DNA of 64,000 nt from a virus: the UHGV virus genome UHGV-1358930. One strand, 5' to 3'. This document shows positions 36,761 to 64,000 of this stretch, one piece after another. Made by a program: the position numbers and the translations under genes. The notes beneath the pieces are model-generated. The model was not told where the DNA came from and did no database searches. It saw only the letters and a program-made list of their open reading frames with translations. Position 1 is the stretch's first letter, and every line of letters starts with the position of its first letter.

Positions 36761-36799
36761 CAATCGGTTATGCGCTCTCCGATAAAAGAGCGCACACGA

Positions 36800-36874: not shown

Positions 36875-36949
36875 AGTAAAAAGAAGACGTTTTATCTCTC
36901 TTTATCTTTCTGTTTGTGGCATCAGTACAAACAAAATGCCACACAACAT

Positions 36950-37648: not shown

Positions 37649-37771
37649 AAAATCAAAATATTTATAAATAAGCTAGAAGGTTTTAATTAAATTTTATTTT
37701 TGACAATTATACTAAAATACTAAATTATCCGTATAATTGAACCTAATATAAATGTAGATAGGAGGTGATAC

Positions 37772-39028
37772 ATGATGAAAACATGGAAGCAAAATCTAAA
37801 ACATCTTACCGTCGATCAATACAATCTGTTAAGAGAATTATGTAGCTTGTCTAGAGCAGTATATAATGAAAGTTTGTATAATATTCGGCAGCATTATTTT
37901 GAAGAAGGTTCTTACTTGAGATATGAAGCAAACTACTATCTTGTAAAGAATTCTGATAATTACAAAAGATTAGGTGCAAATGTTGCTCAGCAATCTATGA
38001 AAGGAGCTGACGCATCCTTCAAATCCTTCTTCGGGTTACAGAAGCTCGCTAAATCCGGCAAGTATCAGGGCTGGAAAATACGAATGCCCAAATATTTGAA
38101 GAAAGATTCGTTTTTCAAAATAGTATTTAGTCAAGCGCAGATATCAGATGACAAATTTCGTGTTCCGGTTTCTTTTGATATGCGAAAAGATTACAAAGAA
38201 CCAATGTTCATAAAAATTCCTCCGCATATTATCGGCAAGAAAATAAGGCAGATTCATATTGTTCCTAAGTACAACGGTAGATACTTTGAAGTTAGATACA
38301 TGTTTGACGATATTGATGTAGAAAAGCCTGAAATCGATGCTACAAGAGCAATGGGAATAGACTTAGGTGTCAATAACTTAGCTACTTGTGTAACCGATAC
38401 AGGTGAGTCTTTCATAATTGATGGTAAGAAATTAAAATCAATAAATCAATGGTACAACAAAGAGTTGGCCAGACTGTCAAGTATTAAAGATAAGCAAAGT
38501 ATCAAAGGTTACACAAAACGCCAATACAACCTGACAACTAAGAGAAACAACAGAGTTAACAACTATATTTATTGTGCAGCTAAGAAAATAGTTAACTACT
38601 GTGTCAATAACAAAATTGGTAATATTGTTGTAGGGTATAATGATGGTTTTCAATCGAGATCCAACTTAGGAAAAGTAAATAACCAAAACTTCGTTATGAT
38701 TCCGTTAGGACGACTGAAGAGCAGACTTGAGTATCTTTGCAATCAACATGGAATCAATTTTGTACTTCAAGAAGAAAGTTACACTTCAAAAGCATCGTTC
38801 TTTGACGATGATAAAATGCCAAAATGGAATCCGCAGAATCCAGAAGAAGCAAAATTTTCGGGAAAACGCGTATACAGAGGATTATACATCACATCAAACA
38901 AAACCAAAATAAACGCAGATGTCAACGCAGCACTAAACATACTAAGAAAAAGTAACTTGACAGACCTAACCGTCTTACAAGCTAGAGGCGCAGTCAGCTC
39001 GCCTTCAAGATGCTATATAGCATCTTGA
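37772..39028 (+). CDS. tnpB: IS605/IS200-family OrfB (TnpB) RNA-guided nuclease homolog with no adjacent TnpA.
   Basis: RuvC-like motifs GIDLGVNNLAT, QEESYTSKASF and INADVNAALNIL are present. The 418 aa size is typical, and a zinc-ribbon region sits near the C-terminus. Confidence 0.65.
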   Translation: MMKTWKQNLKHLTVDQYNLLRELCSLSRAVYNESLYNIRQHYFEEGSYLRYEANYYLVKNSDNYKRLGANVAQQSMKGADASFKSFFGLQKLAKSGKYQGWKIRMPKYLKKDSFFKIVFSQAQISDDKFRVPVSFDMRKDYKEPMFIKIPPHIIGKKIRQIHIVPKYNGRYFEVRYMFDDIDVEKPEIDATRAMGIDLGVNNLATCVTDTGESFIIDGKKLKSINQWYNKELARLSSIKDKQSIKGYTKRQYNLTTKRNNRVNNYIYCAAKKIVNYCVNNKIGNIVVGYNDGFQSRSNLGKVNNQNFVMIPLGRLKSRLEYLCNQHGINFVLQEESYTSKASFFDDDKMPKWNPQNPEEAKFSGKRVYRGLYITSNKTKINADVNAALNILRKSNLTDLTVLQARGAVSSPSRCYIAS

Positions 39029-39153
39029 TAAAGATTTTTTTAATGAATTTAATTGATTTATTTAAAATCTGCTGATGTAGCGCAGCTGTTAGAGCAACCG
39101 ACTTTAAGCAATGAGTCGTAGGTTGAAGTCTAGCAACCAGCTAGATTTGATAT

Positions 39154-39227
39154 GCGGATATAGTGTAACGGTAACATCCGACTCTTCCAAAGTCGTGTTG
39201 CGGGTTCGAGTCCCGTTATCCGCTCCA
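39154..39227 (+). tRNA. tRNA-Gly (anticodon UCC), copy 2.
   Basis: The cloverleaf has the same anticodon loop cTTCCaa, discriminator U and CCA, but a different acceptor from copy 1. Confidence 0.55.
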
Positions 39228-39363
39228 AGAGGGAGTATGCACCCCGCTACCCATCTAGTATGTCGACTATCTGATGGCGCGAAATTTAACTGAAAAGAGC
39301 ATATATGCAAGCTTGTCGCATATGAGTACAAGTGTCGTAAAGTCAATACGATGTCTAACTATT

Positions 39364-39391
39364 TTGACAAAGGCAGAGAAGCTGCTATAAT
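39364..39391 (+). promoter_or_regulatory. Sigma-A-like promoter upstream of tRNA-Met.
   Basis: TTGACA and TATAAT are separated by 16 nt, and a conserved hairpin follows. Confidence 0.5.
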
Positions 39392-39421
39392 CGGGTGCAA
39401 AAACCATTCCCGATACAATAA

Positions 39422-39498
39422 GGGTCTTTAGCTCAGTTGGTCAGAGCATCCGGCTCATAACCGGACGGTCCAGGGTTCAAACCCCTGAAGACCCACCA
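39422..39498 (+). tRNA. tRNA-Met or Ile2 (anticodon CAU), elongator type.
   Basis: G1-C72 is paired and the discriminator is A. The anticodon arm is tccgg-CTCATAA-ccgga and the CCA is encoded. Confidence 0.6.
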
Positions 39499-39712
39499 CA
39501 ATTGGTACAACACGACTGTAACGACTCTCGCGGTTTAAAGTTGTATCCCACTTCTTGATTGAGGTGTGAAGTGTCAAGAGAGCTTCCGACGAGTCTTATG
39601 GGCACCACCTAGCGGTGAAAAGATAAGACAATCGTCATTAGATCTAAGTTGTCCGGCAGTGTTAATGTTATTGAATCATGGTGAAATTGTGATCACATCT
39701 GCCGGATACATA

Positions 39713-39783
39713 TCCTCCCGTAGTGTAGTGGTAGCACTAGCGTCCGTCAGGGCGAAGGATCCGTTCGAATCGGAAGGGAGGTT
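39713..39783 (+). tRNA. tRNA-like pseudogene in which the anticodon arm is replaced by a 5 bp stem with a 4 nt loop.
   Basis: The D-arm (gtgt-agtggta-gcac) is nearly identical to the Gly tRNAs and the T-arm is tccg-TTCGAAT-cgga. The segment cgtcc-gtca-gggcg forms a tetraloop hairpin with no anticodon loop, and no CCA follows. Confidence 0.35.
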
Positions 39784-39997
39784 GTCTGGCACGGACAAAG
39801 TGCAGAACCTATCAAGAGGAATTCAGTGCCTGCCTCGCTTCGGATAGCAAAAGAAGGCGTTTGGTAGTAATCGACAAACTACTCGCGGTTACAGAGAGGG
39901 AGAGGCGTTACAGGTAAACCTCTTAGGTGCTATGATATCAGGCACTTAGCAAAGCACAGCTTGCAGTTAGGACTAATCCGACCAGATATCAAAATAT

Positions 39998-40071
39998 GCA
40001 GCTATAGTGTAATGGTAACACTCAACTCTTCCAAAGTTGTATTGCCGGTTCAAATCCGGTTAGCTGCTCCA
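39998..40071 (+). tRNA. tRNA-Gly (anticodon UCC), copy 3.
   Basis: The cloverleaf has anticodon loop cTTCCaa, discriminator U and CCA. Confidence 0.55.
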
Positions 40072-48505: not shown

Positions 48506-49462
48506 ATGCAACTAGTTCAACCTTCTGTAGTGCGAATCGTAGAATCTGATCCGTTGACTCAGATCGAAAACGCCGCTAGAACTTGCTATAAGTCAGAAAG
48601 CAAAGCAGCTGCAGGATCAGCAAAACGAATGTTTGATAATCTAGTCAAAAACAAACATACAGCGATGTTAGAGCATGCTAGTTTAGTTTTTCAAGTATTT
48701 GACACAGATTATTATGATGCGCTTAAACACAATCTTAGCAAGTACATGAATTTCACAGAACACTGGACTATCAGCAAAGCTGATTCTAGATATACAACAC
48801 CTAGATTTTTAATGTCTGGAAATATCAGAGCTATCAATGATTCATGCATTCGTCAGATATATGAAGCAATGATTCAAGCTGGCCTATCTGATCTGTTGTA
48901 CCCTGATAGCTATCCTAAAGAAAATGAAAACTGGCCAAACGATGAACTACTCCCAAACACTAGAATCAAAGTAGTTGATATTGCTGAAATAGACGATTTA
49001 TCTGAATCCGAGAAACTGAATCATGTTTATGCGAGCTTCAAAATAAAAACAGATAGAGCTGTATCACACGAAATCGTCCGTCATAGGACAATGAGTTTTG
49101 CTCAGCAGTCTCAGAGATACGTTAAATACAATTCCGATGATATCGAATTCGTTGAACCTAGTTGGTATAGAAGTTCAACAGACGACATGAAGCAGATATT
49201 TTGCAATTCTCTACTACAATCTGAAAAGTCATACAACGAACTAATGTCAAAGGGATGTACTGCACAAGAAGCTAGATGTGTGCTACCTAATAGTACAGCT
49301 ACAGAAATTGTAGTTACAGGAAATCTCAAAGCTTGGAAGCATTTCATCAATCTTCGATACAAAGGTACAACAGGAAAACCGTATCCGGATATGAAAGTAG
49401 TTGCTGAACAAATCTACAATGAACTTAAAGTGGATCCGTTGTGTAAAGATGTGATTGAGTAA
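48506..49462 (+). CDS. thyX: Flavin-dependent thymidylate synthase (ThyX).
   Basis: The ThyX signature RHRTMSFAQQSQRY (RHR...S..S.RY) is present. Confidence 0.65.
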   Translation: MQLVQPSVVRIVESDPLTQIENAARTCYKSESKAAAGSAKRMFDNLVKNKHTAMLEHASLVFQVFDTDYYDALKHNLSKYMNFTEHWTISKADSRYTTPRFLMSGNIRAINDSCIRQIYEAMIQAGLSDLLYPDSYPKENENWPNDELLPNTRIKVVDIAEIDDLSESEKLNHVYASFKIKTDRAVSHEIVRHRTMSFAQQSQRYVKYNSDDIEFVEPSWYRSSTDDMKQIFCNSLLQSEKSYNELMSKGCTAQEARCVLPNSTATEIVVTGNLKAWKHFINLRYKGTTGKPYPDMKVVAEQIYNELKVDPLCKDVIE

Positions 49463-49552
49463 TTTTCTACAGCGCATCAACATAACAAACATTAAATTAT
49501 AATCACCTCTAGAACCTATAATAGAAATGGATAGGTCAGAGGTGATTTCTTT

Positions 49553-49786
49553 ATGTGTGAATGCTGCAAGCTACATGTCCCGGATACAAATATCGACATA
49601 GCGAATGATAGTTATGTTAAACTCGGAAGATTTGATGCAACGATCTGGATAATTAAACATGGCTGGTATCAATGTGACGGCAATCGTCCACATTGCGGGT
49701 GGTATTTTCAGCAAAAAGATGACCCTGCTATGATAAAACCTGTATCATTGTCAGATCTATACGATATATACGAAATACAGTTGTAA
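49553..49786 (+). CDS. Small protein sharing an N-terminal W-rich motif with 49801-50460.
   Basis: The motif WIIKHGWYQCDGNRPHCGWYFQ matches WIVQHGWYIYRGLQKNGWYFC in the next gene. Confidence 0.4.
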   Translation: MCECCKLHVPDTNIDIANDSYVKLGRFDATIWIIKHGWYQCDGNRPHCGWYFQQKDDPAMIKPVSLSDLYDIYEIQL

Positions 49787-49800
49787 AGCGAGGTGATATC

Positions 49801-50460
49801 ATGAACTATATACAAATACCTGGTAGCATTACTAAGTTATACGAAGGCGATGTAGTAACTATCGAAACATATCCAGGAACTAAGTGGATTGTTCAGCACG
49901 GCTGGTACATATACAGAGGACTACAGAAAAACGGCTGGTACTTCTGTTCTGTAGATACGCAAACTACGTTACCTGCTACAAACGATGTGCTGCTCAATGT
50001 TTCAGACGTTTCAGGGTCAACTGGATGTTGTAAACCTGACACATCCTGTACATGCCATTGTCCTCCTCCGCCTGGCCCTCCGCCTCCGTGTCCTCCGCCT
50101 CCGTGTCCTCCACGTCCTATAGATCCACATAGCTTTCAAGTAGAACATGCGTTCATAACTGTAGATACAGAAGCAGAAAGAGACTATCTATTAGCTAATC
50201 AGTTGATTCCTAACGGTAAGATAGTAAAAGTTAATCAGACTACTTCTGGAACTAAATACTTCACCTGGAATCAAGTAGCTTCTAAATGGGAAGAGGAAAC
50301 ATTTGGAATCACTCCAGATAAGTATGTAACAACCGAAAGCTTGCCAGACAAGGTAGATAAGATTATAGAATCAAGCGAAAAAGTTCATGAAGCTATCAAA
50401 GAAGTCTCTGCTGAAACTGTACAGTGGAGTAAACTAGAAGTAAGGAGTAAAATAAGTTAA
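49801..50460 (+). CDS. Putative structural or fibre protein with a proline-rich collagen-like linker.
   Basis: The stretch CHCPPPPGPPPPCPPPPCPPRP is present, and the N-terminus is paralogous to 49553. Confidence 0.4.
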   Translation: MNYIQIPGSITKLYEGDVVTIETYPGTKWIVQHGWYIYRGLQKNGWYFCSVDTQTTLPATNDVLLNVSDVSGSTGCCKPDTSCTCHCPPPPGPPPPCPPPPCPPRPIDPHSFQVEHAFITVDTEAERDYLLANQLIPNGKIVKVNQTTSGTKYFTWNQVASKWEEETFGITPDKYVTTESLPDKVDKIIESSEKVHEAIKEVSAETVQWSKLEVRSKIS

Positions 50461-51962
50461 TGGCATCAAAAGTTCTTTTTAGTTATGGCTCAATTGATCT
50501 TTACAAAGCATTGTCAGTCAAAGATGAAAATACATTGTATTTTATCACAGACTCTCATGAAATTTATAAAGGTTCTGAGCTAATCGCGGATAAGACAGAA
50601 CTCAATGTTAAGTTTGTATCCGCAATTCCGTCTACAGCTACTGCTGTAGAAAACGTCTTGTACATTGCTACTGTAGAAGGAAAAACAACGTCTTGGATCA
50701 AGTCCGGGTCAACGATGATTCAAGTAGGTGGTGGAGAAGCTACTGAAATTGCAGACGGAGTTCTGAAGATCACCAATTTTGCCGAAGGCACTATCGCAAA
50801 GACACTAGATGCAGCGACAGACGAGCAGATTCCAACTGCTAAGGCTGTATCGGATGCAATCACTACAGCAGTTGGCCAGCTAGACTCTGCGTTTGTAGAC
50901 GTAGTTACAGAAGCAGCTCCAGAAGGAACTGCAGGTACTGTACTCAAGTTTACAACTAAGGGTGGAGAAACTAAGTCTGTAACTATTGCAGATATTTTCC
51001 TTGCCGGTGCTACATATGACAGCGCAAAGCACATCTTGACTCTAACACTTAATGATGCACAGCATTCTAAGGTAGAAGTTGACTTATCTACTTTTGTCGG
51101 ATCTTCTCTGTCCGATGTATCTGTAGGTGAGGATGAAGCGTTTACAGTAGAACTAGGCGATGGTGCTACGCTTGGTGGATTCAAGACAGGCGACAAGATT
51201 GCAAAGGATATGACAGTTGAAACCATCGTCAAGAAGCTTTTGATGAAACAAGTTCCTCCGACATATGTTCAGCCGTCTGTTGTAATTTCTAACAATGCGG
51301 GCTCATCCGCAGGTAATTACGAAATCGGATCTACTTTGAATGTCAAACTTCATGCTACGTTTACGCAGCATGACGCAGGCCAACTTACAAACATCCAGTT
51401 CAAGAAGAACAGTGTGAATGTGGGTGAAGCTTCTACATCTACTCCTGCAGATTACTCGGAAGAGTCATTGTCCCTCGTTTCTGCTACTACATATTCTGCA
51501 ACTGCTACGTATGCAGAAGGTGATGTAAAGAACGATAACCTAGGACAAGCTTATCCGACCGGACATATTGAAGCAGGTTCTAAGGATACTAGCAATTATG
51601 TATTCACTCCGTACCGTATGGGCTACTTCGCTGGATATACTTCTGACGTAGCTGAATTGACATCTGCAGCAATTCGTAATCTTCAAACAAAATCTAACGC
51701 AGCTTACAGATCAGGATCATTTAAGATCACAGTTAAAGCTGGAGCTAAGCGTGTTGTCATTGCTGCACCTGCAACTAACGCAGGTGTTACCAAGATTCTA
51801 AATGAATCTGCTTTGAACGCAGACGTCACATCTACCTTTGCTATGTCCACTATTGATGTAGAAGGTGCTAACGGCCATGCAGCTATTACATATAATGTTT
51901 GGACATATGTTCCGCTTAACGCATACAGCCAAGATGCTGTTCTTTCTGTTACGCTAGGTTAA
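50460..51962 (+). CDS. Tail fibre-like protein, paralog 1.
   Basis: The product is T/A/G/S/V-rich. The N-terminal motif KALSVKDENTLYFITD is shared with the next two genes. Confidence 0.5.
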   Translation: MASKVLFSYGSIDLYKALSVKDENTLYFITDSHEIYKGSELIADKTELNVKFVSAIPSTATAVENVLYIATVEGKTTSWIKSGSTMIQVGGGEATEIADGVLKITNFAEGTIAKTLDAATDEQIPTAKAVSDAITTAVGQLDSAFVDVVTEAAPEGTAGTVLKFTTKGGETKSVTIADIFLAGATYDSAKHILTLTLNDAQHSKVEVDLSTFVGSSLSDVSVGEDEAFTVELGDGATLGGFKTGDKIAKDMTVETIVKKLLMKQVPPTYVQPSVVISNNAGSSAGNYEIGSTLNVKLHATFTQHDAGQLTNIQFKKNSVNVGEASTSTPADYSEESLSLVSATTYSATATYAEGDVKNDNLGQAYPTGHIEAGSKDTSNYVFTPYRMGYFAGYTSDVAELTSAAIRNLQTKSNAAYRSGSFKITVKAGAKRVVIAAPATNAGVTKILNESALNADVTSTFAMSTIDVEGANGHAAITYNVWTYVPLNAYSQDAVLSVTLG

Positions 51963-51985
51963 ATTATAGAAAGGAGTGAAACTTA

Positions 51986-53554
51986 ATGGCTACAATCAAT
52001 AAAACAAACGCTTTCATGGAGTTCCCTCTTCAAATCAGCCGTCAGTATAGCGGTCCAATTGAAAGATATTCCGTATTCTATTCTCTAGAAGAGGCTACTA
52101 CATATGCTACCACTAATCCAATTGCATATGTAGGTCAGATTGTAACAGTTGTTAACGAAGCTAAGAAGAATTCTGTTGCATATCAGATTTCTAATACAGA
52201 TGGCGATCTAGTTGAAATCGGTGCAAGCAAGCCGATGCTGTTCGTCGACAACGAATCTGCTATGCTAGCTCTAAAAGATCTTGAAGCTGGTCAGCAAGTT
52301 TACAGAGAAGATACCAGCACGGTATGGATCTTTGCTGGTGGCGATGCAACTCAGCTTGTAAACTGGCGCGAATCTGCTGCACACAGCGATACAATCTGGC
52401 AGGGTACCGAAAATAAAGTTATTTTCAATGCTATTACAGAAGCAGCTTATAAAGCTCTTGATGCAAAAGATGTAAATACACTTTATTTTATCACGGATGC
52501 GGGCAGAGTTTGCAAAGGTTCAGCAGACCTAACGAAATCTGTCATTGTAACTGACACGGTACCAGCAGTATCGGATGCAATTCTAGATAAGCTTTACATC
52601 AATTCTACTACATTTGAAGCAAAGATAACGACAGATAACGCAAGCTGGATTGTTCTTACTCCCGGTTATCTAACAGATGGTGCTAACTGGGCAGATGCAG
52701 ATTCTAACAAGTTTGCTACTATTGGTCTCATTAAGAAAGGAATCAAAGCTGCAGTAGATGCGATTTCACTTGCTACTACGTTTGATGCTATCACAGGTAG
52801 TGTCAAGGTAGGCGAAGGTACAGCTGCTACTCTTACCGGTGTTGCTCACGGAATCACCTATGATGCGTCTACGCTTACTATCACTATTCCGCAGTATGGT
52901 TCTGATAATCTAGTTGTAAACATTCCAAAGGACAAATTCGTAACTGCTGGTAAGTATTACGAAGATTATCCAGAAACAGATCCAACACAGCATAAGGTCA
53001 TTGTTCTAACTATTGATGGTCAGGCTGATCCTGTTATCATCCCTGCAGAAGCGCTTGTAAATATTTACAGTGCAGACAATACCAGCAAAAACGTTGTAAT
53101 TTCTGTATCCGATGACAATAAGATTTCTGCTCAGATCCTCATCGATCCGAATACTAAGAATGCACTTACGTATTCAGATGCCGGATTCCTTGTAGACATT
53201 TCTGGTAAGCTGGACAAGCTAACTTCTGCACTTGGTGACAAGATTGTCATCAGTGATGCAAATGGAAATGTAGTTGAGAGCAAGTTCTCTATCCAGTCTG
53301 AGGGCGAATTATCAGTCTCTTCAGAAAACATTGCAACTAACAATGTTGTATCTGCTGCAATCGCTAAGAAAGTTACAGCAGTAGCTGGAACTGAGAACAA
53401 CATCATTACATTTGGCACAGATGGTGCTATCAAAGATTCTGGTAAAACTATGGGCGGTGCTACGCTTTCTGAAACAGTTTCTGCCGATACTCTTGCTTCA
53501 GAAGCTGCCGTATCTGCGGCAATTGACGAAGTAATGAGCTGGCATTCTCTCTAA
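51986..53554 (+). CDS. Tail fibre-like protein, paralog 2.
   Basis: An N-terminal motif similar to YKALDAKDVNTLYFITDAGRVCKGS is present. Confidence 0.5.
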   Translation: MATINKTNAFMEFPLQISRQYSGPIERYSVFYSLEEATTYATTNPIAYVGQIVTVVNEAKKNSVAYQISNTDGDLVEIGASKPMLFVDNESAMLALKDLEAGQQVYREDTSTVWIFAGGDATQLVNWRESAAHSDTIWQGTENKVIFNAITEAAYKALDAKDVNTLYFITDAGRVCKGSADLTKSVIVTDTVPAVSDAILDKLYINSTTFEAKITTDNASWIVLTPGYLTDGANWADADSNKFATIGLIKKGIKAAVDAISLATTFDAITGSVKVGEGTAATLTGVAHGITYDASTLTITIPQYGSDNLVVNIPKDKFVTAGKYYEDYPETDPTQHKVIVLTIDGQADPVIIPAEALVNIYSADNTSKNVVISVSDDNKISAQILIDPNTKNALTYSDAGFLVDISGKLDKLTSALGDKIVISDANGNVVESKFSIQSEGELSVSSENIATNNVVSAAIAKKVTAVAGTENNIITFGTDGAIKDSGKTMGGATLSETVSADTLASEAAVSAAIDEVMSWHSL

Positions 53555-53640
53555 TATCTTACAATAACCAAATATGTATGTTGTGTGTTCTCACAAGTAC
53601 GCACAACATACTAAATATATTTTATGAAAGGGCTAAATAT

Positions 53641-55236
53641 ATGCCTTCAACTTCAGGAATTATTGAATTTAAGTATGGTCTGCAGGCTGAGTATAACAGT
53701 GCAGCCAAAAACGCAAACACGATCTACTTTACGACAGATGCTCAGAGACTCTTTGTAGGTGATACTGAGTATACTCGTCCAGTTTCTCATGGCGCTGCTC
53801 TGCCTTCTAGTTTCTTGCCTCCGGATTCACTGTTCGTGCTGGAAGCGGGTACCGCTCGTTCACTCTACTTCAGCAAGGATGGCAAGACTTGGGAACTCAT
53901 TGCTAAGCTCAACGCTACGATCGCTAATGGTGTAGTTGGTAACAACACAGAGGGTGCTGTTGACTTCGGTGGTAGCTTCAAGATTCCGAAGGTTACTTAT
54001 GATGACCGAGGTAACATTACTGCAGCAGAAGATGTAACTATTACGCTTCCTGCAAATCCTGCCGATATCAAGAATACCGTTGAGGTAGATGGAACCGGAA
54101 ATGCTGTTACGGGTGCTACCTTTGATACTGCAGGTCATGCACTTACTCTCACAAAGGGTGAGACGTTTGCAACTAAGGCTTCTGTTGACGCAATTGCAGA
54201 GAAGCCGGCAATGGATATTACCTCAACTCAGATAACGAACTGGGACAATGAGGTAGGTGCAAAGGCTATTGCCAATGCTGCTGTAAAAGCTAATACTGCT
54301 ATCACCGGAGGTACACATACTAAAATCACGTATGATGCAAAAGGCCTTGTAACTGGTGGTACAGATCTTACTGCTGCAGATATCCCGACGTTAACACTAG
54401 CAAAGATTTCAGACGCTGGTGATGCAGCTAAGAAGGGTGTAGCTACCACTGTTACAGCTGGTGGCACGGACCTCCCGACTGCTGGTGCTGTTCAGACTGC
54501 AATCAACTCTGCTATTTCTGGTGTAACGCAGTTTGAAATCGTGAAGGTCGAGTCTTTCGACAAGCTTCCGTCTACGGGTGTAAAGGGTGTAATTTACCTT
54601 GTTCCGCATACTCATGGATCAAACGATACATTTGATGAGTATATCTGGAACACATCAGCAGCCGAACCGGCATATGAGAAGATCGGCAACACTGATGTTG
54701 ATCTATCTGGATATGTTCCGACCTCTCGTAAGATTAACGGTCAATCACTTGATGCAGATGTCAATATTACTACAATTACAGGTAATGCTGGATCTGCAAA
54801 CAAAGTAAATCATGCAATCACGATTGATGGTCAGAAATTCGACGGTTCTGCAGCAGTAACAATCAGCACCGCAAAGAGCGTCAGCTCTCTCACGGATACA
54901 ACTATCACATCAGCTGCAAACGGCAATTCTCTTGTCTACAACGGTACTGCCTGGGTAAACAAGACGCTTACTAAGGCTGATATAGGTCTTGGAAATGTAG
55001 ACAATACTGCTGACTCTGCTAAGTCAGTTGCGTCTGCAGGTAAGCTGACAACTGCCAGAACTATCACGCTTGAGGGTGATGCAACTGGATCTGTTTCCTT
55101 CGACGGATCTGAGAATGTGTCTATCGCAGTAACAGGTGTTAAGGCTGCAGCAGATGGAGAAGGTAACAACATTGTAGCTACGTATGCTACAAAGGCAGAA
55201 GTCGCAGCTGCAGCGCTTAAGTGGCAAACCATCTAA
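53641..55236 (+). CDS. Tail fibre-like protein, paralog 3.
   Basis: The N-terminus carries NTIYFTTDAQRLFVGD. An AAAGGG ribosome-binding site precedes the ATG at 53641. Confidence 0.5.
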   Translation: MPSTSGIIEFKYGLQAEYNSAAKNANTIYFTTDAQRLFVGDTEYTRPVSHGAALPSSFLPPDSLFVLEAGTARSLYFSKDGKTWELIAKLNATIANGVVGNNTEGAVDFGGSFKIPKVTYDDRGNITAAEDVTITLPANPADIKNTVEVDGTGNAVTGATFDTAGHALTLTKGETFATKASVDAIAEKPAMDITSTQITNWDNEVGAKAIANAAVKANTAITGGTHTKITYDAKGLVTGGTDLTAADIPTLTLAKISDAGDAAKKGVATTVTAGGTDLPTAGAVQTAINSAISGVTQFEIVKVESFDKLPSTGVKGVIYLVPHTHGSNDTFDEYIWNTSAAEPAYEKIGNTDVDLSGYVPTSRKINGQSLDADVNITTITGNAGSANKVNHAITIDGQKFDGSAAVTISTAKSVSSLTDTTITSAANGNSLVYNGTAWVNKTLTKADIGLGNVDNTADSAKSVASAGKLTTARTITLEGDATGSVSFDGSENVSIAVTGVKAAADGEGNNIVATYATKAEVAAAALKWQTI

Positions 55237-55365
55237 GTTCCTGTAATCTATAGTTACTAGAATATGTAGCATTTCGCCGAGTTGATTCAAATCAACTCGG
55301 CGATTTGTTTGTTCACCTTTAATACAACTGACGATAAACTACTACTAAACATATGTGGTGATGAC

Positions 55366-55710
55366 ATGAAAGATGTAAAATTAGAAGATGTATCGTTTAG
55401 CCGAGGACCTTCGAGCACAATTCCAGAAACTAAGATACCTGGAAGATTATTAGTAGAAACAGACACAGGAAATGTATTTTTAGATGATACAAAAGAATCT
55501 AGAGTACAATTAACAGATACATCAAAGTTATCTAAACACGGTGATGTATTAGATGATGGAGCGTCAATGGAATTTAAATCAGGTGAAGATTTTATACGCA
55601 TCTCAGGAAACTCGATTGAAGGCACAGCTTTATCCATCAAAAACATAAGAGAATCATTAGGGATTTCCGATAACAGACTTGTATGGACACCTATAAACGA
55701 GGAGAGATAA
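55366..55710 (+). CDS. Hypothetical tail-associated protein.
   Basis: A GGTGATG ribosome-binding site is present. The ORF-track start at 55282 has no ribosome-binding site. Confidence 0.35.
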   Translation: MKDVKLEDVSFSRGPSSTIPETKIPGRLLVETDTGNVFLDDTKESRVQLTDTSKLSKHGDVLDDGASMEFKSGEDFIRISGNSIEGTALSIKNIRESLGISDNRLVWTPINEER

Positions 55711-55717
55711 CATAAAC

Positions 55718-56236
55718 ATGGATGAGATTCTGAAATACATTCAATTAGTTGCATCTTTGGTGTGCTCTATATCTGCTGCATCTGCAATAATTATCAAAAT
55801 TCTCAAAAAGTCGTTGATAAAGGTTACAAAAGAAGCAATTGATACTCACATGACCGAAATCAAACGAAATCAGCAGCAGAATATCAAGTCACTAGAATCT
55901 AAGATGCAAAGTAAGTTAGACGACATTAAATCATCTACTGATACACAGATGACTGCACTAACAAATCAGCTTCAAAGTTTATCTGAATCTCAATCAGATA
56001 CAAATGCCAAGCTTAAAGCTTCTTTGCTAGCATCTACGAGAGACAGAATAAATCAAGCGCATGACTATTACCTTAAAAAAGGATTCATAGGTACGCACTC
56101 TTTATTTATTGTAGAAGAATTATATTCCTCTTATACTGCATTGGGAGGAAACTCTTTTATAACACATCAAATGGAAGATATCAGAGAACTTAAGCTTACC
56201 AGCGCTGAGATGGAACAGTATGACAAAGAAAGCTAG
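55718..56236 (+). CDS. Protein with an N-terminal transmembrane anchor and a coiled coil.
   Basis: A hydrophobic helix spans residues 7-28 and is followed by a helical Q/S/K-rich region. Confidence 0.35.
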   Translation: MDEILKYIQLVASLVCSISAASAIIIKILKKSLIKVTKEAIDTHMTEIKRNQQQNIKSLESKMQSKLDDIKSSTDTQMTALTNQLQSLSESQSDTNAKLKASLLASTRDRINQAHDYYLKKGFIGTHSLFIVEELYSSYTALGGNSFITHQMEDIRELKLTSAEMEQYDKES

Positions 56237-56324
56237 TTGTTTCTGCTCTGCAATACTTTCGTCACCTTTTATCTAATATATAGCAGGTGCTATTACATTA
56301 AACAATTTGTTGGAGGATGATTAT

Positions 56325-56537
56325 ATGCCGAGTGATAATACCATGATGTTGCCAATAGAAAACAATTCAATTAAGATCAAATTCGGAAGTCAATTGCCAA
56401 GCGCACCTGACAGAGATTGCATCTATTTCATAGCTGATGGAGAGACTAACACCTACAAACTCTATTTAGGAAACTATCCTATATATGCTAACGTGTCCGC
56501 AATAACTGACACTGAAATTGACGAAATTTGTAAATAA
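56325..56537 (+). CDS. Hypothetical small protein.
   Basis: A GGAGGATG ribosome-binding site is present. Confidence 0.3.
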   Translation: MPSDNTMMLPIENNSIKIKFGSQLPSAPDRDCIYFIADGETNTYKLYLGNYPIYANVSAITDTEIDEICK

Positions 56538-56560
56538 TTCTAGATGCAAGGAGGATTATT

Positions 56561-57647
56561 ATGGCGTTTTTAGATAACTCTGGATTGTCTAAGCTTTGGG
56601 CAAAAATAAAAGAACAGCTAAACAGCAAAGCAAATGCTTCGCATGATCATACATCAATTTCTGGTACTGCTTCTAATATCACAGGAGTTGTAGATTTTGC
56701 GCACGGAGGAACTGGTAGATCAAATAGAGATAGCGGATATTCGGCTTTGATGTCGGGGGGTGTACAAGGGAAATCTAAACGACGCTCAAAACGCAGGTGT
56801 TTATATGTTCACAACTGCGGATACTACAAATTATCCTACGTATGCTGGTAGAACTGATACTTGGGCAAGACTAGAAGTAACTACATCAGCTAGAGATTCT
56901 GCAGAAGTGATGCAAAGAGTGATATACAGTAGAGAAGGTGTAGAGTTTACTCGATTACATGCCAATGGAACAACTTGGACTCCTTGGCAAATTGTTGTAA
57001 GTGGCGCAGTTGCACATAGACAATTTGTGCAGAGTATTCCGTCTGGCGCAAATCTAAATGATTATATGATAAACGGTTCATATGTATCTACATCTAGTGA
57101 AAATATTATCGCTAATCTACCACCATTCTTTGGCGATGGTAAAGGTGCATTCACACTTCTTGTAACTGGAATTAGTACAGACTCTATGTATACTAATCAA
57201 ATCTTAATTGCTCTCGACAATAAACATGTATACATGCGATCTCAAACGAATTGGCAACTTCCCTGGGTCTGGACAGATTGGGCTCCAGTACCTATAGATT
57301 TTGTATCTAAAAATACAGGTAAATCTGAAATGCATTTGAACATAAGTAAACTCAATATAGAACCAAATCTGTATTTTGATAGAAGTGTTAATGGAGATAA
57401 ATATACTAGAATGTATGAAGCAAATACACAAGCTGCAGAATTAGCATTTGCACAAAAACCTGTAAATGGAACTGAAGCCATATCTAGATTAGCATGGGAT
57501 GGAGACCACATTGAGTTTAGAGGAGACAATAATACAATGTGGTTAGGTTCAAACTATCATCCGATGGCAAGATTCTACACATCAGACTACGGAACATCCC
57601 TACCAGCAGCTGGTTCTAAAGGTAGAGTCTTTTTCAAGAAAGTATAA
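56561..57647 (+). pseudogene. Receptor-binding / tail fibre paralog interrupted by a +1 frameshift in a G6 run at 56755-56760.
   Basis: The N-terminal part (56561-56760, frame A) and the C-terminal part (56760-57647, frame +1) both align to the intact paralog at 57683-58561. Deleting one G restores the frame. Confidence 0.55.
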
Positions 57648-57682
57648 CAACACACAATTTATATGAAAGATAAGGTGAAAAC

Positions 57683-58561
57683 GTGGCGTTTTTAGATCAT
57701 GACGGATTGGTCAAAGTTTGGAGTAAAATGCTAGAGAAAGTAAATGCAAAAGCCGATAGTTCGCATGACCATAACAGCATATCGGGAACAGCTTCCAATG
57801 TAACAGGAGTTGTTAGCATCAGTAACGGAGGTACTGGTTCAGACTCACGTGGAGAGGGATATCAAGCTCTCCAGTCTGCTGGAACATTTTCAGGTGACTT
57901 TAATAATCTAACTACTCCAGGTGTGTACTGGGTAGATTTAAGAGAATGCACAAATGTTCCGCCTCGTCCAAATGGAATCAATCACGGAATACTAGAAGTA
58001 ATAAACAATGTCAATGTTTATCAGAGATTCACTTGTTTTGAGTACACGATGTATATCAGAACATATGCAAATAACATCTGGCAGGATTGGATTTGTATAT
58101 ATTCTTCTAAAGATATTATCGGACTAAATAATGGTGGTACTGGTGCATCTACTAGCTATGACGCTCAAATGAATTTAGGTATAATGCACGTTCACGATAT
58201 AGCAGCATCTGATCAGAATGACTGGAGAACTAAAGTGCTTTCTCAAATTTTACAAAATTCTATAAATTATGGTGGTGGCTTCCAATGTGGTAGTATTGGA
58301 TGGGCTGGTATTCAATTTGGTCAATACTTTGCTACTTCAGTCGGAAGTGGTGATAATCTATCGAATAGAATTTTGGCGCTAATCTACAATTCGGCTGGAA
58401 CAAACTGGGCATTAGAAGTATGGAGATGCGACGCAGGTACGTGGAATCCATGCGCAGTTAAAGGAGCATCACTACAAACAATGCCAGAAATTGGCTATGG
58501 TACAGCTGACCAAAGACCTGGTCCTGGACTCCCAGGAAGAATTTACTTCCAAAAGGTATAA
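57683..58561 (+). CDS. Receptor-binding / tail fibre paralog, intact.
   Basis: A GTG start follows AAGGTGA. The N-terminus MAFLDHDGL...HDHNSISGTASNVTGVV matches the 56561 gene. Confidence 0.5.
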   Translation: MAFLDHDGLVKVWSKMLEKVNAKADSSHDHNSISGTASNVTGVVSISNGGTGSDSRGEGYQALQSAGTFSGDFNNLTTPGVYWVDLRECTNVPPRPNGINHGILEVINNVNVYQRFTCFEYTMYIRTYANNIWQDWICIYSSKDIIGLNNGGTGASTSYDAQMNLGIMHVHDIAASDQNDWRTKVLSQILQNSINYGGGFQCGSIGWAGIQFGQYFATSVGSGDNLSNRILALIYNSAGTNWALEVWRCDAGTWNPCAVKGASLQTMPEIGYGTADQRPGPGLPGRIYFQKV

Positions 58562-58590
58562 TATTAGAAACAACAAAAAGAGGTGATTGA

Positions 58591-59118
58591 ATGGCTTTAC
58601 AATCTAAAACAATTACTGGCAATGGTTCAAGAGGACACCATAAATTTACATTAACTGTTACAGAGAACAGTAAAAATGATAGTGCAAACACATCCAATAT
58701 TAGCTATACATTTAAAATTTCGCCTATTCAATCTGGATGGGGATGGAATACGCAAGGAACAAATATCAGTTACACTATCACGATAAACGGAACTAATTAT
58801 ACTGGAACAATTCCTGATTATAATGGTTCAAGTACAGTTACGTTGAAAAGCGGTACATTAAACGTTGCACATGATGCAACAGGTACAAAAACAATGAGTT
58901 TCAGTTTCAGTGTACGTGATAGAGACGGAGAAAGTTACACTTGCGGCTCAGCATCAGCTAGCGGATCTATGGTATTAACACCAACCACTGGTCAGGGACT
59001 TGTTTACATTGATAATGGGTCTGGTTGGGATGCATATCAAGTATATATCGACAATGGATCATCGTGGGATAGATACATTCCATATATTGACAACGGATCT
59101 GGCTGGGACATGTATTAA
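58591..59118 (+). CDS. Structural protein with C-terminal tandem YIDNGSGWD repeats.
   Basis: Three copies of YIDNGS(G/S)WD.Y occur at the C-terminus. Confidence 0.4.
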   Translation: MALQSKTITGNGSRGHHKFTLTVTENSKNDSANTSNISYTFKISPIQSGWGWNTQGTNISYTITINGTNYTGTIPDYNGSSTVTLKSGTLNVAHDATGTKTMSFSFSVRDRDGESYTCGSASASGSMVLTPTTGQGLVYIDNGSGWDAYQVYIDNGSSWDRYIPYIDNGSGWDMY

Positions 59119-59236
59119 GTGAATCAATGCTAGCAATAACTGTTGAAACTATTCAGCAGTTATTGTTATGTACACCTTTAATATCGACAAATGTATACAA
59201 ATTCGTTCAACTATGATACTAGGAGTTGATTCGTAT

Positions 59237-60856
59237 ATGCCAAGACAACTATGGAATGAAGGACGAGTTGTAGGCTTGTCCGCATATGAAGTCTATCTCA
59301 AACAACATCTGTCAAAAAATCCTGATATAGAACCTGCTACTGAAATTGAATGGTTAGCTGCTTCGATTGCATCTGGATCTTCTATGATACTGAAAATATC
59401 TGCTCACAAAACTGCAGGTAGACACATAGTAGATTACCCATTACCTGCAGATAGTAGACTATGTGCAGCTAACCTGATTTTTGGTAATTTTTTCTCTGGA
59501 GATGTAGATATATCCGACGCCTCATCTCCATTTGGTTATAGATTGTCATCTGTAGGTCAAACTGTTTCAAATACTGAGCACAGCCATCCGATTGGATCTG
59601 CTACGGACGCTACAAGTATTCCGAATCAAGTTGATGATACAGATTTATTTAACTCTAAAGCAAACGAATACAATAAAATTTTAGATGGTGTAGTCATTCA
59701 ACCAGGTAACTGGGAAGATACAGGTGCGGCAGCTCCTGCAGCAGATCTAATTCCAAACATGAAACTTTCACCTACTGTCCGTATACTATTCAAAGACAAA
59801 GTAGATGTAGATTTCTATGTTATATTAACTGGATTCACCAATAGATCTGTAATATCTGGAGTAGCTGGAATGGGAGGATCTTTTGATCCTATTGCTCCGC
59901 TAGACGGAACAGCATTTGGACCCGCACAGTTCCCTTGGGCTGCTAAAATCATATTCAATACGTCTAACTATACATTAGATCAGGCTGTATTATCTAATTA
60001 TTCTCGAAAGCTTCCTACTTCTGCAGCTGAAGTATCTGTAAAAGGCAAACCGATTATAGATATGGCTACAACTGACCCAAACAGCTACTATCATGCAAAT
60101 CTACCAGATGCGCAAGTTACAGAAAATGTCGTTAAATATAGCTCTCCAGACAACCAAATCAATGTACTAACTACATATACAAAGAAAGATAAATATCCGC
60201 CTGCGTTGTATGGAGGAATAGTAACTAAAACAGGTGAAAACACTATAAGTCCAATAGGTGTTGTATCCGAAGGTTCAGTTAAGATATTTGACAAAGATGC
60301 AACGAAAGATGATATAAAGGATTATGAAGACACGTATCCGGGTACATCTGGAATTCGTAAAAACGATGACGGAACTATGGATACTCTAGATAACGCTGAT
60401 AATCTAGTTAAAGTCGCTGAAGTGTCGCATAGAAGGCTTGTGTATAACAACATAGTCGCAAGCGACAACTATGTGAATGGCGTAGTAACTAAGACTGGAA
60501 ATAAATCTGCGATATCTCTATCACTATCGCCTAGCAGTAACGACACGCAGTATACGCTAGGAAATGATGGAGATAACAACAAGACCATAGGAAACACAAC
60601 ATTCGGAGTAGGTAACCTGCAGAAGCTGAGTCCAAATTCTTCTAATATCACATTCCCTTATATACTAGAAGCTATGTCTAATAATAAGTCAATAGACATT
60701 CTAGGAGATAACATGAAATTGCTGAAAGCTGGTCTAAATAAATCGGAACCATATGTCCAGCTTCCTAACGGACTTCGATTCTACATATCCGCAACAAAAC
60801 CAACTGCAACTGATGTCCCAATCGGGTCTATTGGAGTAGGCTGGACAGAGGAGTAA
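59237..60856 (+). CDS. Putative tail or baseplate structural protein.
   Basis: A large ORF within the fibre module, preceded by an AGGAG ribosome-binding site. Confidence 0.4.
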   Translation: MPRQLWNEGRVVGLSAYEVYLKQHLSKNPDIEPATEIEWLAASIASGSSMILKISAHKTAGRHIVDYPLPADSRLCAANLIFGNFFSGDVDISDASSPFGYRLSSVGQTVSNTEHSHPIGSATDATSIPNQVDDTDLFNSKANEYNKILDGVVIQPGNWEDTGAAAPAADLIPNMKLSPTVRILFKDKVDVDFYVILTGFTNRSVISGVAGMGGSFDPIAPLDGTAFGPAQFPWAAKIIFNTSNYTLDQAVLSNYSRKLPTSAAEVSVKGKPIIDMATTDPNSYYHANLPDAQVTENVVKYSSPDNQINVLTTYTKKDKYPPALYGGIVTKTGENTISPIGVVSEGSVKIFDKDATKDDIKDYEDTYPGTSGIRKNDDGTMDTLDNADNLVKVAEVSHRRLVYNNIVASDNYVNGVVTKTGNKSAISLSLSPSSNDTQYTLGNDGDNNKTIGNTTFGVGNLQKLSPNSSNITFPYILEAMSNNKSIDILGDNMKLLKAGLNKSEPYVQLPNGLRFYISATKPTATDVPIGSIGVGWTEE

Positions 60857-60860
60857 TCGT

Positions 60861-62531
60861 ATGGCTACTTCAAATTTTACAACATTCAACAACGACTGGA
60901 CTTACTGTGCACAAGAGGGCTATATATCTGCGGGCACATTCAAAAACACAAATTCGAGTAAGATTCATATTTCTAGCGTATCGCTGTGGCTTGGTACTCT
61001 TAGTGGATATGTAAATGCAGGCGATACGACTACTGGAAATGGCAAACCAATTTCAACCACAGTTAAGATTGGAAACACAATATCTACTGCAGTAAACGTA
61101 ACAGCTGTAACTGGTACAGGTTACGATTCTAGTGTAGGATACTACCCTACGCATAAAAATAACCCCGAATATAAGTTTCCGATATCCGCTACCGTAAATC
61201 CAGGAGCTACAGTAACAATATATGTGCATGCTCCAAATGGAATAAATACCTCCACAGGAAATTGTTTAACAAAAACGCAAAACAAAGGCACAGTGACGTA
61301 TGAAGTAGTTCCGGACTATTATACTGTATCCTACGATGCTAACGGAGGTACAGGTGCACCAGCTTCTCAACAAAAAATACATGATGTTAATCTAACTCTG
61401 TCCTCTACTGAACCAAAAAAAGCATCAACGTCTGTTTCAAGCTACCGTGTTACATTCAATGCCAATGGAGGTTCATGTGATGTAGCTTACAGAGACTCGA
61501 CCAAAACAACTACTTACACATTTATTTGCTGGGCTGCAAATAAAGATGGATCAGGTACAACCTGGTTTCCAGGAGGTACGTATCGTCAAAACGCTTCCAT
61601 AACACTATATGCAAGTTACGTAGGAGTAGAGACACAAGATTCAGTCGGACTCCCGCACGCTTCTAGACCTGGATACGTGTTTAAAGGTTGGGCAGAATCA
61701 CCATCGGAAACTTCTGGTGGCACACTATGGTACACTCCACAGCAGAATATTACCCTATATGCAACATGGGAGCGAGCTTCTATCACAATTACATATAACG
61801 CTAATGGTGGATCTGGAGCTCCTTCAAATCAATCAGGTGTACCGCCAATTACAATCAGTTCAACTATACCTACTAGATCTAATTGCAAATTTAAATGTTG
61901 GAATACTAGATCTGACGAATCTGGTACATCATACAATCCTGGAGATGTATACAATGGGTTCTCTAATGTCACATTGTATGCAATATGGCTATATAAATTC
62001 ACAATAGGTGGAACAGATGGAACAGTGACGTATAGCGGATCTTCGTTATCTCTCGCATACTCCGCAGACAATTCTACGCTTACTGCGTATCTGGATAAGG
62101 GTACACACATACCGTTATCTGAGTTCAGGTTCAATTGGGACTCGTACTCAGGAAAAACTTTACAAAGCTGGAACACCAATACAGCAGGAAGTGGAACTTC
62201 ATACAGCTTAACTCAGACAATACAATTATCATCTGCATTGACGTTGCATGCAATAGCAGCTCCGCTACACACATATACTGTATCATTTTACGATGGAAAA
62301 TCTCCTGTAAATTCTGTGATCAGCTCTATTCAAAAACCATACGGATCCGAATTGGTTGATTCAGATTATCCTACTCCGCCTACTTGGCCTGGTCACAAAT
62401 TTTCTGGTTGGGTAGGAGGATATTCGATAGTAATGAAAGACATGACAATAACTGCGATGTGGGGATCTTCTCCCGTATGGATATTCACTACATCTGGGTG
62501 GGTCAAATATTCACCGAAGGAGAAAAAATAA
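60861..62531 (+). CDS. Structural protein with Listeria-Bacteroides (Flg_new) repeats.
   Basis: Repeated Y.V.(Y/F)(D/N)ANGG...P...GY.FKGW units are present. Confidence 0.5.
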   Translation: MATSNFTTFNNDWTYCAQEGYISAGTFKNTNSSKIHISSVSLWLGTLSGYVNAGDTTTGNGKPISTTVKIGNTISTAVNVTAVTGTGYDSSVGYYPTHKNNPEYKFPISATVNPGATVTIYVHAPNGINTSTGNCLTKTQNKGTVTYEVVPDYYTVSYDANGGTGAPASQQKIHDVNLTLSSTEPKKASTSVSSYRVTFNANGGSCDVAYRDSTKTTTYTFICWAANKDGSGTTWFPGGTYRQNASITLYASYVGVETQDSVGLPHASRPGYVFKGWAESPSETSGGTLWYTPQQNITLYATWERASITITYNANGGSGAPSNQSGVPPITISSTIPTRSNCKFKCWNTRSDESGTSYNPGDVYNGFSNVTLYAIWLYKFTIGGTDGTVTYSGSSLSLAYSADNSTLTAYLDKGTHIPLSEFRFNWDSYSGKTLQSWNTNTAGSGTSYSLTQTIQLSSALTLHAIAAPLHTYTVSFYDGKSPVNSVISSIQKPYGSELVDSDYPTPPTWPGHKFSGWVGGYSIVMKDMTITAMWGSSPVWIFTTSGWVKYSPKEKK

Positions 62532-63266
62532 ATGGGATGGATAATGTCTTCAAAATTTCCTGGAAAAGCTATCATCTACAACTACTACAATCAGGATGTA
62601 GGTAGTTCAAAGAAGGGAACATATACGAAAGCGGATCCAGAATTCTTCAACTGGCAAATAGGTGAATACTGGCTCCAGCACGATCAATGTATAAAATATA
62701 TCAACACTGCCGAAAGTGCGATACGATTGACACGTGTAGGAATAAAAACCATGTCATGTAACTCCAATGGTCAAAGTTACTGGTCATACGGAGGTGGTCC
62801 GAACCCGCCTGTAACTGGCAAAGGTGGAAAATATTATGCGTTTATACAGCATTTTGATGCAAATGAAAACTTGCTAGATAGATCATATATTGGAGATACT
62901 AAACCTGCGATTGATATTCCCGACGTTGGACCTAACATGATATGGGCAGGAGACGGAAGTACGCTAGGGCATACTGCAATATTTGATTCAACAAAGATGA
63001 CGATGAACACATATGAAACACCAGATTGTCCTGCCATACAGCCAGGAGAAGGATTCTATCTTCATTTAGGCATCGGAGAATTCACTGAAACTTGGCTACC
63101 TGCAGTAAACATCATGTTTTCATTAGTGCCTGGAGATATGGATATATATATTGAACCTGCAGAACAGCCGGCAATATGGAGATTCGAAGAGGATAGAAAA
63201 TGGCACTTAGTTAAACGCTTATACAAGATGACAGGATCCGGATGGACAAGCATGTACGACAAGTAG
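62532..63266 (+). CDS. Hypothetical structural protein.
   Basis: A GGAG ribosome-binding site is present. Confidence 0.4.
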   Translation: MGWIMSSKFPGKAIIYNYYNQDVGSSKKGTYTKADPEFFNWQIGEYWLQHDQCIKYINTAESAIRLTRVGIKTMSCNSNGQSYWSYGGGPNPPVTGKGGKYYAFIQHFDANENLLDRSYIGDTKPAIDIPDVGPNMIWAGDGSTLGHTAIFDSTKMTMNTYETPDCPAIQPGEGFYLHLGIGEFTETWLPAVNIMFSLVPGDMDIYIEPAEQPAIWRFEEDRKWHLVKRLYKMTGSGWTSMYDK

Positions 63267-63274
63267 GTGAAATC

Positions 63275-63661
63275 ATGAAAATATTTACAAGCAAGACAAC
63301 AAAATTAAGTGCTAATCAGCAAGTAAATAGAGTTGGTAAATACTTATTTAATCACATTGACAGCGCATACAACTATAAAAAATCTGGAAATATGTTTGAT
63401 GTGTATATCACAGCATACTATCAAGATACAAGTAGACTCGACTCTAGTGTAGAAGAAATGAATATTGACATCAACATAACTACATACAGCAATAAGCTCC
63501 GAATAAATATTATTTCTTTAGATGAAAATGAGAAGACTATCGGATCTGATGTGTATACGCCTGAGTTTCTTGAGGACTTGCCGAAAGCTTACAGCAAAAT
63601 AATGAACCGAATAAAGTACAGGATGTCTAAAGAGTTCTCGAAATACGAATTTATTTTCTAG
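63275..63661 (+). CDS. Hypothetical protein.
   Basis: An AGGTGAA ribosome-binding site is present. Confidence 0.35.
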   Translation: MKIFTSKTTKLSANQQVNRVGKYLFNHIDSAYNYKKSGNMFDVYITAYYQDTSRLDSSVEEMNIDINITTYSNKLRINIISLDENEKTIGSDVYTPEFLEDLPKAYSKIMNRIKYRMSKEFSKYEFIF

Positions 63662-63929
63662 ATTCGTTATTTATATCGGAGGAGAATCTACAAATGAGAC
63701 TATACATCAAATCAAGTGAAAACACATCCGAAGAATTTGAAACGTTCAACACATTTGAAGTTAGTAGCATATCCGATGTACTTTCAGCTCATGCCTGATG
63801 AATTTCACTATAAAAGACCTCTTAGACAAGGAGGTCCGATGCTTGTGAAAATAGCTTATAGAACAATTCAATGGTAATCAGTTTTCACGCGTTAACATAA
63901 CATCATTCTAACTAGGAGCTGCTGAATCA

Positions 63930-64000
63930 ATGAAAAAACGAATATATCCAATATCTGCTGGAATTCGTGTTGAGAACAACAAATTTATATTTAAGAATGA
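63930..64000 (+). CDS. Hypothetical protein, 3'-truncated by the window end.
   Basis: An AGGAG ribosome-binding site and ATG are present, and the ORF runs off the window. Confidence 0.3.
   Translation, partial: MKKRIYPISAGIRVENNKFIFKN

Follow-up and report, generated by a model that had tools for sequence, protein, structure and literature searches.

When a tail-fibre-like gene appears in two pieces in a viral assembly, should one doubt the sequence, the gene, or neither? The question is raised by two overlapping open reading frames (ORFs) in the 64,000-nucleotide stretch of phage DNA analysed here (the window), which are offset from each other at a run of six G's. The first-pass annotation took the ORFs to be the two parts of one receptor-binding gene and offered three readings of the split: a sequencing indel, a decayed duplicate, or ON/OFF switching by slipped-strand mispairing.

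The features needed to follow the argument are these:

56561..57647, + strand: class-A tail-fibre / receptor-binding gene, complete extent; frameshifted (OFF) here, with intact orthologues of 362 aa
56561..56851, + strand: ORF A, 96 aa; codons 1–65 are the shared N-terminal module (N-module), followed by 31 out-of-frame codons
56755..56760, + strand: G6 homopolymer, a candidate hypermutable contingency tract, in the linker from the N-module to the first beta-domain
56760..57647, + strand: ORF B, in the +1 frame and open for 295 codons; variable receptor-binding part plus the conserved C-terminal end ..GTSLPAAGSKGRVFFKKV
57683..58561, + strand: class-D paralogue, 292 aa, intact (ON), with its N-module and C-terminal end in common with class A
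57851..57859, + strand: class-D tract remnant, interrupted (GGAGAGGGA), 9 nt and in frame, apparently locked ON, at the spot where relatives carry their tract

The phage and its split gene

The window belongs to an uncultured, myovirus-like phage of the human gut with a genome of ~160 kb. Positions 48591–64000 are 100% identical to a human-gut metagenome scaffold in the ENA (ERZ28657041, sample SAMEA3449149, 108 kb), and the longest of the four contigs that encode the products of the G6 state measures 162 kb. The GC content is 38.5%. Identity of the major capsid protein to isolated phages does not exceed 28%, with Listeria and Bacillus myoviruses the nearest. Among GenBank phages there was no match to the locus by megablast or to the fused protein (see below) by tblastn, and peptide and DNA-pattern scans of IMG/VR returned no relatives. 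A scan of GTDB genomes gave a sole match, 27 C-terminal residues in a Candidatus Scatomorpha metagenome-assembled genome, which is too weak to name a host. An Amidase_2 endolysin and a protein with Listeria-Bacteroides repeats (described below) give a hint of a Gram-positive host in the gut.

Several other features of this genome should be recorded. Nine tRNA genes lie within 33869–40071, including three for tRNA-Gly(UCC) and two for tRNA-Gln(UUG); one tRNA called as Tyr has the unusual anticodon ATA (36950–37026; loop c-t-ATA-g-g), and between the tRNA genes there is an Rfam match to the abiF RNA (35359–35395; 38.3 bits against a gathering threshold of 37, E=0.002). The same region holds a 418-aa TnpB (37772–39028; OrfB_IS605 and a Cas12f1-like TNB domain). 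A related TnpB, 97% identical, sits directly upstream of the class-A fibre gene in five relatives (L001, at 1235–2491, and L002, L003, L006, and L007), and since copies this similar occupy different sites, the element has moved within the phage lineage. A 622-aa HNH/homing-endonuclease ORF (2854–4722) adjoins the major head gene and a helicase ORF (14958–17672) carries an HNH insertion at aa ~280–360, both signs of mobile endonucleases or inteins. A few kilobases downstream of the fibre module, relatives encode a 7-deazaguanine/queuosine set (L011, 16315–20177; L006, 17519–20846; L008, 18738–21086) comprising Vut_1, QueF (with an intein in L011), QueC, PTPS/QueD, and a radical-SAM QueE-like protein; the set is also present on the window's own contig, just past the window's 3' end, and its gene content suggests that the phage DNA may contain modified G.

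The two ORFs are one split tail-fibre-like gene. ORF A starts 6 nt after a strong Shine–Dalgarno sequence (aaggagg, 56548–56554) and encodes the module motif MAFLD..HDH.SISGTASN.TGVV..GGTG. ORF B starts 199 nt (3×66+1) past the start of ORF A, that is, in the +1 frame, and a TGA in this frame at 56748–56750 confines the frame change to 56751–56851, of which the G run tcGGGGGGtgtac (56755–56760; context 56750–56765, atgtcGGGGGGtgtac) is the first element. The +1 offset that had been placed at the tract is thus borne out by the frame arithmetic and the stop codon.

Removal of one G in silico yields a fused protein of 361 aa. In a BLASTP comparison with the class-D paralogue (57683–58561), residues 1–147 of the fusion align with residues 1–141, across the junction, at 42% identity (E=7e-29). 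Alignment is found again over the last ~20 residues and is absent from the central ~190, so the homology to the paralogue, described beforehand as running from end to end, holds for the two ends only. When the fusion was used to query a large protein collection, full-length orthologues of 362 aa (P0001–P0005) were retrieved with 80–92% identity (P0001 92%, P0002 90%) and 100% coverage, and these too join the two parts into one gene. The same search returned many proteins of 268–297 aa that start directly past the junction. No 295-aa protein starting at the GTG of ORF B was found on record in a look-up, whereas the 280-aa product from a downstream ATG, the start chosen by the gene caller, is recorded. 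The exact products of the G6 state (96 aa, P0095, and 280 aa) occur on four contigs from JGI/IMG, Logan, and the ENA.

The length at which the gene is whole can be read from its relatives. In-frame relatives have the junction ..L(M/I)SGG(V/T/I)Y.., with exactly two Gly in 40 of the 40 in-frame proteins of the first set, and the intact class-A orthologues carry G8 and read ..MSGGVYK... Because all in-frame relatives read SGG, the natural ON allele of class A is 8 nt (TCG GGG GGG GTG), and the window's G6 is two G's short of it. The repair proposed at the outset, deletion of one G, does carry the alignment to the paralogue through the junction; G5 was never observed, and nature's ON length is G8. 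By tract length, the class-A product is full-length at 8 nt, a stub of 72–73 aa at 7 or 10 nt, and a stub of 96–97 aa at 6 or 9 nt.

The fused protein matched no family in Pfam or PHROGs. A profile of 37 homologues searched against the PDB found the R1/R2 pyocin fibres (6cl5, E=5.8e-5; 6cl6, 1.2e-4). The intact orthologue P0001 was modelled with AlphaFold2 at a moderate mean pLDDT of 68.7, with beta-domains at residues 65–260 reaching 80–88, and the model's best Foldseek matches are the pyocin fibres 6cl5/6cl6, a phi812 baseplate chain, the receptor-binding proteins of phi11 and 80alpha, and the Mu tail fibre. In this model, the linker encoded by the tract (residues 63–66) is placed between an N-terminal helix with a low-confidence segment and the strand beginning at E66. 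Relatives show weak matches to XkdV_N. The class-D paralogue has a PHROG tail-fibre match, and the neighbourhood is of the same kind, with PHROG tail or tail-fibre matches at 53578–55236 and 58591–59118 and Phage_tail_C on 51986–53554. The first-pass assignment of the class-A product as a receptor-binding fibre is therefore supported by both sequence and predicted fold. Downstream of the fibre genes lies a 556-aa protein (60861–62531) with three Listeria-Bacteroides repeat domains (Flg_new, E=8e-31); it is conserved in all relatives and is possibly an additional adhesin.

Tract length and reading frame among relatives

DNA of relatives was fetched from independent metagenome assemblies, and the tract was read from one conserved flank, gat(g/a)tc, to the other, tgtaca. 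A pattern scan of JGI metagenomes gave 32 matches, of which L023 and L035 alone are true relatives. The class-A tracts were as follows:

G6, OFF: window
G7, OFF: L001, L002, L004
G8, ON: L003, L009, L023
G9, OFF: L006, L007, L010, L035
Interrupted, GGGGAGGGGG (10 nt), OFF: L005
Interrupted, GGGAGGGG (8 nt), ON: L008

The 194 nt on the 5' side of the tract are of equal length in 13 loci, with no other indels, and hence the tract is the sole indel-polymorphic site in that stretch. Genomes with only 2–3% flank divergence already differ in tract length (window/L035, 6 against 9; window/L003, 6 against 8). Pairs with identical flanks from different samples (L001/L002 and L006/L007) share the same length, which indicates that the consensus is stable over very short times.

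The sample was enlarged with the N-terminal fragment and the sequences belonging to eight protein clusters, in which the junction peptide gives the frame and the frame gives the tract length. In the 65 distinct sequences, the inferred lengths were 6 (one sequence, the window's own product), 7 (19), 8 (16, ON), 9 (17), and 10 (three), together with several interrupted tracts. G6 is thus the shortest allele observed and is confined to the window's phage, its relatives having 7–10. The spread is stepwise and centred on the ON length, as slippage would produce. At the level of the consensus, ~70% of assemblies are OFF, a proportion that has to be accounted for, for instance by paralogues that are redundant or by a cost of the fibre.

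Class A is not alone in possessing such a tract. Relatives have two to five tandem genes (some retain only two) that share an N-module of ~65 aa (M[AS]FLD..H.H.ISGTA.N.TGV..GGTG), followed by a variable receptor-binding body and a conserved C-terminal end of 18 aa (GR[VI][FYW]F[KQ]KV). At or just after the N-module, every class carries a G run of its own (G7–G10 in relatives), at a codon position that differs by class. For classes B to E, the tracts were as follows:

Class B: G7, G7, and G8, all OFF
Class C: G7 OFF; G9 ON; interrupted 8-nt tract ON
Class D: G7, G8, and G8 OFF; G9 ON; interrupted 9-nt tracts ON
Class E: G7 and G8 OFF; G9 ON

Across 25 tract instances in the five paralogue classes, the frame state follows the tract length modulo 3 without exception. 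Pure tracts are mostly OFF and interrupted tracts mostly ON. The class-D site is cgt-G7 in L003 (OFF), G8 in L004 and L009 (OFF), and G9 in L005 (ON), and it is interrupted in L008 and L010 (GGGGGAGGG / GGGAGGGGG, ON). In the window, the class-D tract is broken by G-to-A changes, from which the gene is predicted to be constitutively ON. All five paralogues of L009 have G8 or G9, and no genome examined lacks an ON paralogue. The related loci, 148 kb in all, contain 24 G runs of seven or more, every one of them in a fibre paralogue at the junction of N-module and body, and no C runs of seven or more.

A separate phage of ~116 kb (L045/L046) has a fibre gene with the same C-terminal domain and a different N-terminus (MSESRGG..). 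This gene holds a G8 at 7725–7732, in codons 5–7, and is OFF; the ON proteins of its class read RGGS (P0008) or RGGGS (P0009), implying 7 or 10 G.

Selection on OFF copies and the competing explanations

If an OFF copy were simply a broken gene, one would expect to find relaxed selection and additional disabling mutations past the tract. These signs of a pseudogene are absent from the OFF copies. None has a stop or an indel in the ~295 downstream codons, and all are open to the conserved C-terminal end. Past the tract, dN/dS between OFF copies is 0.16–0.25 at dS 0.28–0.5 (window/L001, window/L004, window/L010, and L001/L010), indistinguishable from the 0.16–0.35 of ON/ON pairs; it is 0.16–0.26 for ORF B against OFF and ON orthologues and 0.04–0.29 for the N-module. 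The downstream part is therefore under purifying selection even between OFF genomes. Because the OFF copies are undamaged and their dN/dS is low, the OFF state cannot be old in these lineages: either it is frequently reset, or expression occurs in spite of it.

The tract itself also bears marks of selection. A single G6 in 64 kb is unsurprising alone, as ~1.6–3 are expected by chance. The codons that make up the tract (TCG-GGG-GGG-GTG) are the rarest of their synonymous sets (TCG, 6.3% of Ser; GGG, 5.2% of Gly; GTG, 9.8% of Val), and GGGGGG occurs in none of the 42 other Gly-Gly dicodons of the window. G or C runs of at least five are about seven-fold depleted in the window (three seen against ~23 expected), and a pure G run has been retained across dS ~1 (L009). 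The use of the rarest codons, the depletion of G/C runs, and this persistence argue for selection on the homopolymer as such.

Besides the G6, the window contains just one G/C run of six or more, a G9 at 36443–36451, for which ~0.01–0.03 would be expected by chance. It lies within the tRNA region and occupies the loop of a small hairpin (ctaagtc..gacttag); the ATG of an ORF for a very basic product of 99 aa (36461–36760) follows 10 nt downstream. The run is also nine G's long in L048, a 510-bp contig from a different sample, so no length variation was seen.

We consider it likely that the split gene, one of several receptor-binding fibre paralogues, carries a polyG contingency switch in its OFF position, the switching itself being deduced from consensus assemblies. 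This is the third of the initial readings, and it is favoured by tracts of 6–10 G between conserved flanks, by a frame that follows length, by purifying selection on OFF copies, and by the recurrence of the arrangement in paralogues; the split gene, the codon bias, and the fibre-like fold are further direct observations on its side. Under the proposed switch, the N-module would be the probable tail anchor common to the paralogues, and a pure G run would be maintained for the Gly-Gly linker that follows it. When the polymerase slips in replicating the phage DNA, a G would be gained or lost, presumably at a high rate and reversibly, and the frame would be set accordingly. Class A would be ON solely at 8 nt, leaving the window's G6 allele OFF and two +1 steps from G8. 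Since slippage would set the frame, populations should contain mixtures of virions with different fibre sets; the switch would then alter host range, and the mixed sets would act as a bet-hedge against changing surface receptors of the host. G6 may switch slowly, being shorter than 7–11 G and two steps from the only ON length observed.

This last point should be kept in mind when weighing the possibility that class A is a dead or dying duplicate in the window's phage, with a tract that has shrunk to the far less mutable G6 and class D doing the work. The G6 allele is unique among ~56 inferred lengths and lies two steps away from the sole ON length seen, the relatives that keep only two paralogues illustrate gain and loss of these genes, and the class-D neighbour appears locked ON. 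Against such decay stand the 295 downstream codons without a further lesion, dN/dS of 0.16–0.26 against close relatives, and the intact N-module behind a strong ribosome-binding site, from which it follows that a death, if there was one, was very recent. The selection data thus speak against decay for the lineage, and we regard a very recent loss in this one phage as unlikely. An indel introduced by sequencing or assembly, with G8 (or G5) in the true phage, is less likely again. Homopolymers are the classic site of indel errors, n=6 is confined to this phage, and the window has an identical counterpart in just one metagenome scaffold of the ENA; these points keep the error in play as a rival for the G6 allele. 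However, a two-base consensus error is improbable in short-read data, and the G6-state products are found on four contigs from three collections (JGI/IMG, Logan, and ENA). Other out-of-frame lengths recur across samples and assemblers (L001/L002 and L006/L007), so assembly error is an unlikely explanation for the class as a whole.

The gene might also be expressed despite the shift, by ribosomal frameshifting or by RNA-polymerase slippage on the G run, in which case OFF would mean low, or programmed, expression. This would require a +1 shift on GGG_GGU (G6/G9) and a −1 shift on G_GGG_GGG (G7). G runs permit tRNA-Gly to re-pair in both directions, and a −1 slip at G7 would recreate exactly ..SGGVYK... 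Yet all three frame relations occur among the relatives, many of which have in-frame or interrupted tracts, so there is no conserved offset of the kind found at a programmed site. Nor is there a Shine–Dalgarno-like stimulator upstream of the tract or an RNA structure downstream of it (the 56740–56860 fold has z=−0.65, and 45 of 200 shuffled sequences fold at least as well). In the absence of a conserved offset and a downstream structure, a programmed frameshift was rejected, and a frameshift-suppressor tRNA was likewise dismissed, the three tRNA-Gly(UCC) genes having normal 7-nt anticodon loops. For transcriptional slippage, G runs are poor sites when set beside long A/T runs. Incidental slippage at a low level may occur on the G run; as an account of the split gene, expression across the shift is the least probable of the three alternatives, by a little.

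Relation to known switching systems

To our knowledge, polyG switching of phage receptor-binding proteins has been proved by experiment only for the Fletchervirus phages of Campylobacter, and it has been described mainly there. The proposed switch resembles that system in that G runs within receptor-binding genes of a large, virulent-type phage set the frame, several genes per genome have tracts, and the suggested benefit is diversity against variable host receptors. The sequence-level hallmarks of the Fletchervirus loci (a tract within the ORF, a rule relating length to frame, and polymorphism between relatives) are found here as well, as far as assemblies can tell. In Campylobacter jejuni Fletchervirus, as its published accounts summarize it, hypermutable tracts of 7–11 G are located in receptor-binding genes (Sorensen et al. 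2021, Cell Rep 35:109214, via bioRxiv 10.1101/2025.10.21.683753, PMC12823448, PMC10877375). The present case differs in several respects: the lineage is an unrelated one from the gut, the fibre has no match among GenBank phages, and the system is known from its sequence alone. Its tracts sit at one architectural point, the junction of N-module and body, in a tandem family that shares the module, and the window's own G6 is below the reported 7–11, while relatives have G7–G10.

Short homopolymers within ORFs that undergo reversible frameshifts through polymerase slippage, as a bet-hedge, have been described for contingency loci of T2/T4 and other phages (Gomez, Barrick & Waters, bioRxiv 10.1101/2025.10.21.683753). 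The same work notes that simple repeats are under-represented in coliphage tail fibres and names polyG runs in BPP-1 and PB1-like phages (bioRxiv 10.1101/2025.10.21.683753). Loci of the T2/T4 type are mostly A/T runs of at least six in many gene classes, whereas the tracts considered here are G runs, otherwise avoided in the genome, and are found in fibre genes only. Among bacteria, polyG/polyC contingency loci are ON when their length fits the frame (PMC9311878; also general knowledge). The phage tracts are like those in the surface-structure genes of Campylobacter, Haemophilus, Neisseria, and Bordetella in their stepwise lengths and in the slipped-strand mispairing proposed for them, and unlike them in being borne by a virus, on the attacking side of the phage–host interaction.

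In purpose, the proposed switch would also be comparable to the invertible G/C segments of Mu/P1 and the diversity-generating retroelements of Bordetella phage BPP-1, which are summarized in one account as offering a choice of receptor-binding ends on an anchor that stays constant (PMC12823448). In the parts examined, the fibre genes are accompanied by neither an inversion system nor a reverse transcriptase, and the only recombinases nearby are TnpB or IS607-like. In the literature searched, no account of tracts like these in metagenomic phages of the gut was found.

A broader proposal, which we put forward tentatively and rate as somewhat doubtful, is that a widespread clade of ~160-kb human-gut phages practises combinatorial host recognition. 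Up to five paralogues sharing an anchor, each with its own polyG switch, could provide up to 2^5 repertoires per burst, and the stubs of 72–97 aa might both compete for the sites at which the fibres dock and tune the stoichiometry of the fibres. Such a system would be a first outside Campylobacter phages and also the first recognised from metagenomes.

The polyG device now appears in an unrelated, uncultured, and apparently common lineage of the human gut, in the form of a tandem family of switchable fibres. Researchers should be warned that split or frameshifted fibre genes in viral assemblies are not to be dismissed as errors or pseudogenes. If the switch is confirmed, a G run at the junction of anchor and body would offer a simple signature for finding host-range genes in metagenomes, and host-range bet-hedging by mutation would be a more general phage strategy.
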